This document shows, piece by piece, positions 6,349 through 14,753 of a DNA stretch of 29,458 nt (positions are counted from its first letter, which is position 1; every line of letters starts with the position of its first letter). The stretch comes from Acutalibacteraceae bacterium (GTDB lineage: Bacteria > Bacillota > Negativicutes > Veillonellales > Dialisteraceae). Both the position numbers and the translations under genes were made by a program. Below the pieces are notes generated by a model, which did no database searches, was not told where the DNA came from, and was given only the letters and a program-made list of their open reading frames with translations. The stretch covers positions 1-29,458 of the forward strand of contig CAVEYT010000001.1 in NCBI GenBank assembly GCA_963619995.1. The letters are read 5' to 3'.

Positions 6349-6584
6349 TCAGCCTTCTCCAACTCTTCCAGCTCTTTCTGCGCCGCGTTGATTTTGTCTC
6401 TTATGCTCTGACGGTCTGCCAGCAAGGTATCCGTGTCGTAGGGGTCTTTCTCGCCCTTGAGCCGTGCCTCGTAAGTTTTCACGATTTTATAATCGCCGAT
6501 TGCCGAGTTTTCGCCCGAAAGCTCCGACTTGAGATTGATGATTTCCTGCTGAAGGATTAAGATTTTTCTTTGCTTTTCGTCCAT
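6345..6584 (-). CDS. Small helical phage protein (DYKIVK motif), possibly tail-fibre associated
   Basis: RBS AAGGAG; GDYKIVK...RQSIRDKIN pattern; overlaps RT 3' end; ATGA overlap with the next gene. Confidence 0.65.
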   Translation of the reverse strand: MDEKQRKILILQQEIINLKSELSGENSAIGDYKIVKTYEARLKGEKDPYDTDTLLADRQSIRDKINAAQKELEELEKAE

Positions 6585-7729
6585 GATGATTGTCTCCTTT
6601 TGTAAAAATCCATAGACTTTAGAGTTTTGTAGGCGTTATCCCGTTTCTTATCGCCTCGCCACGCGCGGTACTGGTTTTCGTACTCTTCGGCGGTCATGTC
6701 TCCCGCCGTGACTTTCTGGGCGAGTTTCTTGAGTTTGCGCCGCTCTCTTTTGGTGACGTCTTTCGGGATTTTCTTGATGATTTTTCCCGTCGACGTCAGG
6801 ATGTAGCGGGTTTTCAGCCACGTGAAGCCGTGACTGAGCTTGACTATCTGCGTTTTCTTTCGGTTGACATAGATGCCGAGCCGCTTGGCAAGTGTCTCGA
6901 TATCCCGCAGTAGGTCGCGAAGGAACACTTTATCTGGGTGCAGGACGATTCGGTCGTCCATGTAGGCGTCGTAGCAGTGTACCGATTTGACTGTTTTCAC
7001 GTATTGGTCAATCAGCGTCGGATACAAGATGCCGATGATTTGAGATATCGGTGCGCCGATGCCTAGAGATTTCTGCATCATTCTGTCACCCGTCAAGCGT
7101 TCCTTTGGAATTTTGACGTATTCCAGCGAGTTAAAAACTTCGTCCATGAGGTCATGCTCCGTATAGGAAATGTCCACCTCGTAGGTCTTTAGGATTTTCT
7201 TCGCCAGATTCGTCAGTTCCTCGTCTCGGAAAATAGTCTCGAGCTGTCTGATGGCGTCCTCGTGTCGGATGTTGTCAAAGTACTTTGAGAAATCGACAAT
7301 GAGCGCATAGCCTTCTATACCGTAGCGCCGATAGTGCCAGCGTAAATGCTCCTCGAAACGGCGTCTCGTAAAAGATAGCCCTCTGCCTTTCAGCCCTGCG
7401 CCGTTGTCATAGATGATGTGCTCTTTGACTTTTGGAATTATCACGCCGTCGCACAAGGCGTGCTGTAATACCGCGTCTCGCGGGGTCATGGATTTCACGA
7501 GCCGCCTGTGTCCGTTTTCGTTGATTTCAAAAACGGAGCCTTCCTGCGGTTCGTAAGTTCCCGTCTCGATTTCTCTTTTTAGCTTGGCGATTTCCGAAAG
7601 CCGATTCAAGAGAAATGCCTGTGATTTGTACTTCCACCCTGAGGATTTCGCCAATTTCTTAGCGGCTTCAAGGTATTGATTTACTGTGATGTTCATGATG
7701 TTTGAGATATGCCACGCCGATAGCGGCAA
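6557..7729 (-). CDS. DGR reverse transcriptase (start uncertain: TTG 7729 or ATG 7696)
   Basis: RDAVLQHAL, GKG-like GRG, VDFSKYFDNIRH, DGR-type LGIGAPISQ motif, catalytic YMDD, GFTWLK; no maturase or endonuclease extension. Confidence 0.95.
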   Translation of the reverse strand: MPLSAWHISNIMNITVNQYLEAAKKLAKSSGWKYKSQAFLLNRLSEIAKLKREIETGTYEPQEGSVFEINENGHRRLVKSMTPRDAVLQHALCDGVIIPKVKEHIIYDNGAGLKGRGLSFTRRRFEEHLRWHYRRYGIEGYALIVDFSKYFDNIRHEDAIRQLETIFRDEELTNLAKKILKTYEVDISYTEHDLMDEVFNSLEYVKIPKERLTGDRMMQKSLGIGAPISQIIGILYPTLIDQYVKTVKSVHCYDAYMDDRIVLHPDKVFLRDLLRDIETLAKRLGIYVNRKKTQIVKLSHGFTWLKTRYILTSTGKIIKKIPKDVTKRERRKLKKLAQKVTAGDMTAEEYENQYRAWRGDKKRDNAYKTLKSMDFYKRRQSSWTKSKEKS

Positions 7730-7941
7730 TATCCGTAGATAGCCGCGTCATGGCATTTGTTTACCATTTGGAAGGATACACACTCATTCCCTGCTCCGAT
7801 GTCTGACTTTTAGTCTCTTGATATCGTCTGAGAAGCGGGCGCACGCCCCCGACATTCGAGGCGTTGTTGTTGTTGGCATTGCCATTCTCGCTGGCATTGG
7901 CGAAATTCGACGAGTTCGCGATTAGCGTGTACCCCATGATA
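7730..7941 (-). ncRNA. DGR template RNA region (5' flank + TR + spacer)
   Basis: Non-coding gap between avd and RT containing TR; 5' flank 7935-7925 can pair with spacer 7783-7773. Confidence 0.75.
7836..7921 (-). repeat. DGR template repeat (TR)
   Basis: 86-bp ungapped match to 8532-8617; reads GCG AAC TCG TCG AAT TTC GCC AAT GCC AGC GAG AAT GGC AAT GCC AAC AAC AAC AAC GCC TCG AAT GTC GGG GGC GTG CGC CCG; 10 AAY codons, 22 adenines. Confidence 0.96.
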
Positions 7942-8469
7942 TTATTCCAATTTCGCCCTTCTTTTATTGTCTGACTTGCGCCAGCCCTTGAGTAGAGCGA
8001 TTTCCCTGTCTACTGCTTCTGCATACTGTATTAGCTTTTCTGCCTTGACTGGCAAGATGTCAGCCGCCAGCTCTAATTCCTGTTTGAGACTTTCGCAATC
8101 TGCAATCGCTAAATCTTGCGCGTTTCTCCGTAGGTCGGCTTCGGCTTTCGTCGTCGCCCAGATGGTGTAAGCCTGCGTGATGTGTTGCATCATGCGGCTA
8201 AGGCTCTTTAGGATGCCGTCTCGGACGTGCTCTATCATCCAGAGGGGATAATCGTCTATCACTTTTGTTTCGCCGTATTTTTCGAGCAGTTCGGCAAAAG
8301 TAATGGCGTCTTGCGGCTCCCATTTCTTCGTGCAAAATCTCGGCTCGCGGATTCTTGGCTTTACGCCAAAATCTCTGCCCATCAGAAATATGAGTTGCCT
8401 TCTGAGTTTCACGGCGTTCATGTAAAATTCGAGCTTAGACAAGCTGCGGTTTCGTGCTAATACAGACAT
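7942..8469 (-). CDS. avd: DGR accessory variability determinant (Avd-like four-helix bundle)
   Basis: MSVLARNRSLSKLEFY; RRNAQDLAIADCESLKQEL; EIALLKGWRKSD; lies between target and TR; RBS AAAGGAG. Confidence 0.88.
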   Translation of the reverse strand: MSVLARNRSLSKLEFYMNAVKLRRQLIFLMGRDFGVKPRIREPRFCTKKWEPQDAITFAELLEKYGETKVIDDYPLWMIEHVRDGILKSLSRMMQHITQAYTIWATTKAEADLRRNAQDLAIADCESLKQELELAADILPVKAEKLIQYAEAVDREIALLKGWRKSDNKRRAKLE

Positions 8470-8486
8470 GTTGTCTCCTTTCTAAA

Positions 8487-8505
8487 GCGCCCCACAAGGG
8501 GGCGC
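8487..8505 (-). promoter_or_regulatory. DGR target-recognition hairpin/cruciform downstream of VR
   Basis: GCGCCCC-CTTGT-GGGGCGC (7-bp GC stem), 8 nt after the target stop codon. Confidence 0.8.
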
Positions 8506-8513
8506 AGACAGGG

Positions 8514-9407
8514 TCAGCGGAGCAGGAAATACGGGCGCACGCCCCCGACATTGGAGGCGCCGCTGATGATGGCACAGCCATACTCGCTGGCATTGGCGAA
8601 ACCCGACAAGTTCGCGACGTCTCGGAGCCAGCACCAATAGGCTCTTGTAAAGTTCTGACCGTATCTAAAGATGGCAAGCTGTTTATTGCAATCGCCTTCT
8701 TCTTGCCCCGAGGACGCCATCGGGTGATTGCCATACATCATTGCCTGATTGGGGATGTTGACCTTGACCGTTGTCCACAGTGAGCCGCTCCAATCCCAGT
8801 AGGCGCTGCCCGTCCAGCATGCTCCTGCGGATGAGGCGGCGTTGGCGTTCATGCCGTTTGTCAGTATTTCCTTGTGCTCTAAAACGTGTGCGCTTCCGAA
8901 GGCGTTCACGATTCCCGTGACATACAGCGGTATCGTGGTTTTCCACATATAGCTTCCCTGATAGCCGCCAGCCGTGGTGTTCGTGCTGTTCATATAGCTC
9001 GTGCCGAGATTGTTCTCTGGTATCATCACGACATGGTGCGCCGTGGTTTCCGTACTGCCGCGGTGCAGGTGATAGTCCAAATCTGCCACGAGCCACTTTA
9101 CGTTGCTGTAGGTCGTGCCGTTGACCGTCACGGATTTCGTGATGTAGTCGCCAGGGAAAATATCATCAAAGGTACCAGCGGCGATGGCAGTACTCATGCC
9201 GCCGGAGTTAAAGTAACTTGTCAAGTCTTTGCCACGGTAGATGCTGTTGTGTGATGCCGCCGTTTTGGGCAAAATTTCAGCCAAAAGCTGTGTCTTTAAT
9301 GCTTCAAACGTGATGGCCTGCGTTTCATTCGTGCCTTCCGCCAGAAACAGGTCGGTGTCTTCCAGTGTTGCCACTTCGGGCAAATTGGTGATTGGGATTC
9401 CTGCCAT
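8514..9407 (-). CDS. DGR target protein, putative receptor-binding protein with C-terminal C-type-lectin-like variable domain
   Basis: Ends YWCWLRDV-[VR]-GGVRPYFLLR*, typical of CLec-fold DGR targets; last gene of the tail fibre cluster. Confidence 0.9.
   Translation of the reverse strand: MAGIPITNLPEVATLEDTDLFLAEGTNETQAITFEALKTQLLAEILPKTAASHNSIYRGKDLTSYFNSGGMSTAIAAGTFDDIFPGDYITKSVTVNGTTYSNVKWLVADLDYHLHRGSTETTAHHVVMIPENNLGTSYMNSTNTTAGGYQGSYMWKTTIPLYVTGIVNAFGSAHVLEHKEILTNGMNANAASSAGACWTGSAYWDWSGSLWTTVKVNIPNQAMMYGNHPMASSGQEEGDCNKQLAIFRYGQNFTRAYWCWLRDVANLSGFANASEYGCAIISGASNVGGVRPYFLLR
8532..8617 (-). repeat. DGR variable repeat (VR)
   Basis: 12 mismatches vs TR, 10 at TR adenines (AAT>GGT, AAT>TAT, AAT>TGT, AAC>ATC x2, AAC>AGC, AAC>GGC); GC-rich 3' end. 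Confidence 0.96.
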
Positions 9408-14349: not shown

Positions 14350-14753
14350 ATGGCAATTTCCTCCGCGTATTCTTTCAACGTGACGGAGCAGGAAATACTG
14401 ATTGGTGTGCCGAAAGCGCCCCATTGCGTCACACTTTCGGAGACGTCTGTCACCACCCAGAGCGTATTTCCTATCACGTCCGTCCCGAGCACCAAGGGGA
14501 CCGTCTCGCCCGTGTCTCGCAGTTTCTCCAGCCGTTTCACCTCATCGGCGGGGATGACGCCCATATCGGCGCGAAGGAGCATTGTGAAAGAAATTTCCGA
14601 CTGCCCCGCGCCCAGAAATTCGGATATCGGCTTTTTGCCGATGATGTCATGCGTCACCCACCTGGCGGACGCGCTTTTCTGGTAGCCGTCAAACGTCCGG
14701 ACGCAATAGCGCGACGATAAAAAGGGAATGCTTCCCAAGAAACCGACAATCAA
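14346..14753 (-). CDS. Tail tube initiator, P2 GpU-like
   Basis: RWVTHDIIGKKPISEFLG, LVLG...G..WV, VTLKEY; TTG 14753 chosen from AGGAGG spacing (track start 14762). Confidence 0.8.
   Translation of the reverse strand: MIVGFLGSIPFLSSRYCVRTFDGYQKSASARWVTHDIIGKKPISEFLGAGQSEISFTMLLRADMGVIPADEVKRLEKLRDTGETVPLVLGTDVIGNTLWVVTDVSESVTQWGAFGTPISISCSVTLKEYAEEIAI

Follow-up and report, generated by a model that had tools for sequence, protein, structure and literature searches.

A prophage DGR whose spacer RNA primer may also pair with the VR tail during homing

The spacer RNA of the DGR in the window (the whole 29,458-nucleotide stretch analysed here) carries an inverted copy of the VR 3' tail within its primer strand, and we propose that this primer probably pairs with VR DNA during homing and thereby sets its direction, a role first put forward in 2017 and given comparative support by the sequences analysed here. 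Four things were observed directly: the match itself, its location at the primer, about 10 bp of conserved pairing in the window's clade, and a surplus of primer matches to VR where VR and TR disagree. Cis-priming at the 3' end of TR is the established job of the primer; a guide role would come second, with a strength that depends on lineage. The idea of such a guide thus dates from 2017, and the sequence comparison of 100 DGRs gives it partial support.

The DGR locus and the primer/VR-tail match

Judged from its sequence, the locus is an ordinary prophage DGR on the minus strand, with the order target gene with VR, hairpin, avd-like gene, TR, spacer and RT, and with all genes co-oriented. Its parts are listed below.

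6557..7729, minus strand: DGR reverse transcriptase (PF00078, E 1.6e-12; phrog_1423, E 2.8e-53), with YMDD and a likely ATG at 7696
7773..7784, minus strand: spacer strand of the predicted cPRT-stop duplex, beginning two bases past the invariant AA
7786..7798, minus strand: spacer-RNA primer strand, which repeats the VR tail in inverted orientation; 7786-7795 form its conserved core, and 7787, 7786 and 7785 are the candidates for the priming base
7797..7826, minus strand: predicted spacer stem-loop (constrained fold, 7826-7823 with 7797-7800)
7830..7835, minus strand: TR 3' end (IMH* position), with the template strand predicted at 7830-7834 in a register common to the relatives
7836..7921, minus strand: TR, the 86-nt repeat shared with VR
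7924..7935, minus strand: upstream strand of the predicted cPRT-stop duplex, a 12-bp helix with 7773-7784
7942..8469, minus strand: Avd-like accessory gene, 175 aa (phrog_3206 'Avd protein of DGR', E 3.9e-5, partial match)
8487..8505, no strand assigned: GC-rich DNA hairpin with a 7-bp stem and a 5-nt loop, directly past the target stop codon (from sequence and DNA fold)
8515..8531, minus strand: VR 3' tail (IMH position); 8521-8530 is the conserved primer partner
8532..8617, minus strand: VR, an 86-nt direct repeat with TR
8514..9407, minus strand: target gene, 297 aa, an ORF in the phage tail module whose C-terminus is encoded by VR and the VR tail

TR and VR differ at 12 of 86 nt, 10 of the mismatches being at TR adenines and two elsewhere (7912/8608 and 7857/8553). 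The target gene matched no Pfam family and gave only a weak PHROG match (E 0.004), and the closest named relative of the RT is that of a Dialister sp. MAG (73%). A genome-wide check of the assembly revealed no further VR, nothing resembling a promoter or terminator was found within 7600-8700, and Rfam returned only two weak matches far below the cut-off, with no family near the cut-off for the spacer RNA. Elsewhere in the window, 674-1681 encodes an Abi-like protein (PF07751, E 1.3e-22) beside the prophage integrase.

The locus shares with BPP-1 the order of its elements (target gene with VR, hairpin, avd, TR, a spacer of about 140 nt, RT), a primer about 45-50 nt past TR, and a short TR-end duplex beside a stop duplex of 11-12 bp. 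A hairpin like 8487-8505 is reported to be required in BPP-1 (Guo 2011; PMC3240598). In contrast to BPP-1, the spacer sequence is unrelated, the upstream stop strand lies between avd and TR rather than within avd, and TR/VR identity ends at the junction, where VR has one extra base.

Alignment of the repeats reproduced the end of TR/VR identity at 7836/8532 given in a preliminary description of this DNA. As also described there, spacer 7786-7798 repeats VR tail 8518-8530 in inverted orientation with 12 of 13 positions identical, the sole difference being a G-T wobble; the match lengthens to 14 of 16 for 7786-7801 against 8515-8530. Among 5000 dinucleotide shuffles of the 106-nt spacer, 8 equalled the match against the 20-nt VR tail and 9 were as good against a 41-nt VR tail, corresponding to p of about 0.002 with the register left free. 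Searching both strands of the 3.07 million genome positions located the 13-mer, with at most one mismatch, 7 times including the two DGR sites, which amounts to 2.3e-4 per 100 nt. The match is real, with a chance level of about 2e-3, and exceeds chance by less than the level below 1e-4 originally claimed. Two of the seven occurrences are exact recurrences of the VR-tail 13-mer at 14384(+) and 13309(-), in unrelated coding genes of the tail module, and these recurrences are read as chance because no TR similarity surrounds them.

Only about 10 bp of the match, 7786-7795, are conserved among relatives; 7796-7801 are not conserved, and the three nearest relatives of the window lack this extension. 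The primer-VR duplex of the window ranks first in strength among 100 DGRs, and as an extreme case the window overstates the rule. Its predicted primer duplex reaches -22.0 kcal/mol with VR, versus -7.3 kcal/mol with TR.

Cis-priming architecture of the spacer RNA and the candidate junction

By analogy with BPP-1, 7786-7798 is the cis-priming strand, equivalent to Sp47-56. Priming in BPP-1 was mapped to Sp A56, with TR G117 as the first copied base (Naorem 2017; PMC5703328), and Handa 2018 (PMC6182149) found that TR and Sp pair to a limited extent and that G is specifically needed at Sp57. The bioRxiv report of Handa (10.1101/2023.10.23.563531) describes a TR117-129:Sp47-56 duplex, separated from the stop duplex by two disordered bases, and, in the pre-active state, a G57-G117 pair; its survey of 278 DGRs deals, according to the main text, with Avd hairpins and stop duplexes. 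In the window, the predicted TR:primer duplex joins 7787-7791 to 7830-7834 by four Watson-Crick pairs and one GU pair, with 7835 facing 7786. With primer positions numbered from 7786 (position 0) through 7787 (position 1) to 7798 (position 12), positions 1-4 pair with the TR end (Watson-Crick plus GU) in 100, 98, 99 and 88 of 100 DGRs, the register being anchored on these very positions. The stop duplex of the window comprises 12 bp (7784-7773 with 7924-7935), with pair probabilities of 0.93-1.0 in unconstrained folding. Across DGRs it starts at offset 2, two bases past the invariant AA, in 84/100, and its energy is -17.9 kcal/mol for cognate versus -12.0 kcal/mol for non-cognate strands.

The TR:primer duplex is not the free-energy minimum of the naked window RNA, and we thus infer it from homology. 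The unconstrained minimum contains a shifted 8-bp cis helix (7789-7797 with 7832-7839) covering the predicted initiation site, and in this model the helix could be an inhibitory state peculiar to the window's copy. When 25 clade sequences were folded with RNAalifold, the TR:primer duplex was not recovered and no compensatory pairs appeared; the upstream strand of the stop duplex lay outside that alignment. The predicted spacer stem-loop 7797-7826 sits where BPP-1 has its Avd-binding hairpin. Its 3' arm shares bases with the part of the VR match that is not conserved, and primer positions 10-13 covary with this cis stem.

As the priming base, 7787 and 7786 appear equally plausible, each just short of an even chance, and 7785 appears rather improbable; these weightings are our judgement and were not computed. 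Priming at 7787 would preserve an invariant A-U pair at the duplex end and a linker of two bases, in agreement with the active structure of BPP-1, with U at the base past the invariant A where BPP-1 needs G at Sp57. For priming at 7786, the next base, 7785, is G in 100/100 and faces a TR G in 92/100, resembling G57-G117, and the priming base itself would be mispaired with TR in 87/100. Priming at 7785 would need a bulged U. Modelled junctions for priming at 7787, 7786 and 7785 were free of VR mismatch in 10, 65 and 44 of 100 DGRs, respectively, and in 6, 8 and 13 of 25 members of the window's clade; the window itself fits only 7785. The junction near 7785 predicted by the preliminary description is thus gap-free for the window and for 13/25 of the clade, whereas the geometry derived from BPP-1 favours 7787 or 7786. 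The RNA-cDNA chimera colinear with VR that was envisaged with it holds if priming occurs at 7785, and becomes a chimera with a 1-nt bulge in the window if priming occurs at 7787 or 7786.

Spacer position 0, the base 3' of the invariant A, forms a Watson-Crick pair with VR in 77/100 and with TR in 13/100, with 64 VR-only versus 0 TR-only cases; its BPP-1 counterpart, in contrast, does not pair with VR. VR position 0 is C in 31/31 four-fold degenerate cases without a register shift, compared to 33-40% at Gly/Arg third positions, and this C holds across three reading frames. Adenine mutagenesis was considered as the source of VR position 0 and rejected, since opposite a TR A the VR base is C in 53/74 cases, versus 225/2222 inside the repeat. 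The switch from a G-C to a U-A pair is a single event on the tree, and eight rows have primer G against VR A, so that position 0 combines strong conservation with thin covariation. We tentatively consider that in this DGR family base 7786 might be read by the target and not by the template, and that the primer might be a programmable guide in a register unlike that of BPP-1, although we hold this with less than even confidence. Either cDNA would be primed from 7786 while that base is mispaired with TR, giving a seamless RNA-DNA guide, or the RNA would stay uncleaved on a 2'-5' branch and read VR across the junction.

Primer pairing with VR and TR among relatives

Relatives were fetched by likeness to the RT or Avd, yielding 288 loci from four scans. 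Of the 289 loci including the window, 212 combined a TR/VR pair with the spacer motif, 51 lacked a usable pair, and a further 26 were dropped since their spacer motif scored under 8 despite a TR/VR pair. The dropped loci (L053, L059, L060, L063, L066, L080 and 20 more) may have other primer layouts or misplaced repeat ends. The 212 loci collapsed to 102 distinct primer/TR/VR triples, and removal of L018 and L167 as misregistered left n = 100; the TR register was moved one base by hand in five (L011, L014, L263, L268 and L274). The window's clade comprises 25 distinct DGRs and is monophyletic, with an RT identity of 0.44-0.97 (median 0.52). The spacer was anchored on its own motif without consulting VR, and the final registers came from a joint search applied alike to TR and VR; since they were picked for maximal pairing, cognate scores are inflated. 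An unanchored best-match search was abandoned as too noisy outside the window's clade. A first anchored comparison with registers set on core positions gave VR and TR about equal scores (24 v 23 of 65), with TR ahead at distal positions; this core-only rule was replaced because it put the VR of the window's clade one base off, and whether a VR advantage is present or absent thus depends on allowing a 1-nt offset. L002 and L134, from two distinct lineages, each carry an additional G in the primer; their distal VR pairing is preserved and does not need the 1-nt offset found in their relatives. As a method control, BPP-1 Sp56-47 gave ten consecutive pairs with VR, nine Watson-Crick and one wobble, whereas its duplex with TR was broken.

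Within the window's clade, VR outperformed TR in 25/25 DGRs, whether scored by count or by energy. Pairing with VR at positions 0-9 occurs in 19-25 of 25, whereas positions 6, 8 and 9 pair with TR in only 3, 3 and 5 members, respectively. Because these positions pair with VR and mostly not with TR, priming and homing could be separately mutable. Synonymous sites inside the duplex are fixed: the Leu codon is CTG in 24/25, versus 23% of Leu codons in the target genes, position 1 is T in 24/25 and the third-base C at position 4 is present in 25/25, whereas the last Arg/His codon and the stop codon vary. At position 8 the two strands shift together in some rows, with VR T opposite primer A in four rows and forming a G-T wobble in two. 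At the 487 sites within positions 0-9 where VR and TR disagree across all 100 DGRs, the primer agrees with VR 266 times and with TR 124 times; the longer contiguous pairing is with VR in 65 and with TR in 25, with 10 ties.

Outside the window's clade (n = 75), however, there was no VR advantage at positions 1-9 (22 v 22) or by energy (33 v 41), and over all 100 the energy comparison gave VR 58 v TR 41 (p 0.11). Cluster-level tests of VR against TR were not significant by energy and faded by count (35 v 14, 20 v 10 and 7 v 4). The proposal that the RNA primer guides integration to VR is partly supported: the segment sits at the primer position and, in the clade, pairs much better with the VR tail than with the TR end. 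The check suggested in the preliminary description, covariation of VR tail and spacer across DGRs, gave a comparably divided result at n = 100: VR matches exceeded within-cluster partner shuffles between deep lineages (tree cut 1.5, z 5.3) and marginally at cut 1.0 (z 2.3, p 0.026), and covariation among close relatives was absent at cut 0.6 (z 0.5). In energy terms, covariation of the primer is stronger with TR (z -6.6) than with VR (z -3.2). In 41 sister pairs, 46/65 primer changes left VR unchanged, and nine of the 10 apparently compensated VR sites came from two rows with 1-nt indels, leaving one true substitution against eight for TR. Positions 10-12 pair with VR in 9, 6 and 6 of 25 clade members, near chance. 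VR position 10 is C in 20/25, yet the primer pairs there in 9/25, indicating that some codon fixation has another cause.

A two-partner scenario and its alternatives

Considering these results, we propose the following scenario, in which primer strand 7786-7798 would have two partners in turn, first the TR 3' end and then the VR tail. In cis, a fold-back of about 5 bp (7787-7791 with 7830-7834) beside the 12-bp stop duplex would prime adenine-mutagenic cDNA at or near 7786-7787, a step that is shown for BPP-1 and is suggested here by the homologous geometry. The RNA would then remain attached to the cDNA and anneal to single-stranded VR tail over 10 conserved bp (13 in the window), so that the heteroduplex would run past the end of TR/VR identity and favour VR over TR as recipient. 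The window's extra pairs at 7796-7801 would be a lineage-specific bonus, partly set by the cis stem-loop. The preliminary description did not know of this as a described rule; the same interpretation had been proposed by Naorem (2017; PMC5703328), whose Discussion and Fig. 6C legend describe better pairing of the primer at the end of VR than at that of TR and propose that this difference sets the direction of homing. As in that model, the primer here pairs more with the VR end, over about 10 pairs in the window's clade compared to 10 consecutive pairs in BPP-1; unlike in BPP-1, up to 13 consecutive pairs occur here. Unlu (2026; PMC12875486) still calls cDNA integration unknown and cites the Naorem model as unproven, and no comparative test of primer-VR pairing was found in the literature searched, which leaves out most subscription journals. 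Speaking against the scenario, DGRec (10.1101/2025.03.24.644984) is described as achieving mutagenesis without IMH, though by recombineering.

The segment could instead be a cis primer only, with the VR match arising from shared VR/TR ancestry and protein constraint on the VR tail, primer positions 6-9 held by protein contacts, and the length of the match in the window due to luck. The missing VR advantage in the 75 DGRs outside the clade, the lack of short-range covariation, the one clear VR-only compensatory substitution in the 41 sister pairs, the covariation of positions 10-13 with the cis stem while they pair with VR at chance, and the absence of the extension from the three nearest relatives all agree with this explanation. 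However, it does not account for why synonymous positions within the duplex are fixed, why discordant sites divide 266 v 124, or why VR position 0 is C in all 31 four-fold cases and in three reading frames, and we regard it as unlikely.

Two further explanations accept the pairing and assign it another partner or origin. The VR tail might sequester the primer within one transcript and damp or switch reverse transcription; the co-orientation of target gene, avd, TR and RT, the lack of a terminator-like site in 7600-8700 and the predicted duplex energies (-22.0 v -7.3 kcal/mol) are compatible with such RNA-RNA pairing, and the complementarity data fit DNA and RNA partners alike. The BPP-1 IMH, however, is reported to act in cis at the recipient DNA and to be movable to a heterologous target on another replicon (PMC3240598), and this explanation thus seems decidedly improbable. 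Overwriting of the VR tail from the primer RNA during repair, which would make the match a product of conversion and not of selection, would account for the near-invariant VR position 0 without selection. However, the G-T difference at position 3 persists in 19/25 clade members and the BPP-1 co-conversion boundary is placed upstream of the junction, at TR107-112 (PMC5703328), so that we give overwriting hardly any credence. If, as we favour, primer-VR pairing is an address label for homing, the IMH requirement would become a base-pairing rule that is predictable from sequence and reprogrammable. The window's clade suits a test of the 2017 model better than BPP-1.

Further adenine-biased repeat pairs were seen in four of the relatives (L038:4952-5267, L075:8057-8372, L065 with a minus-strand partner, and L019:6514-6734), possibly representing second templates or second targets.
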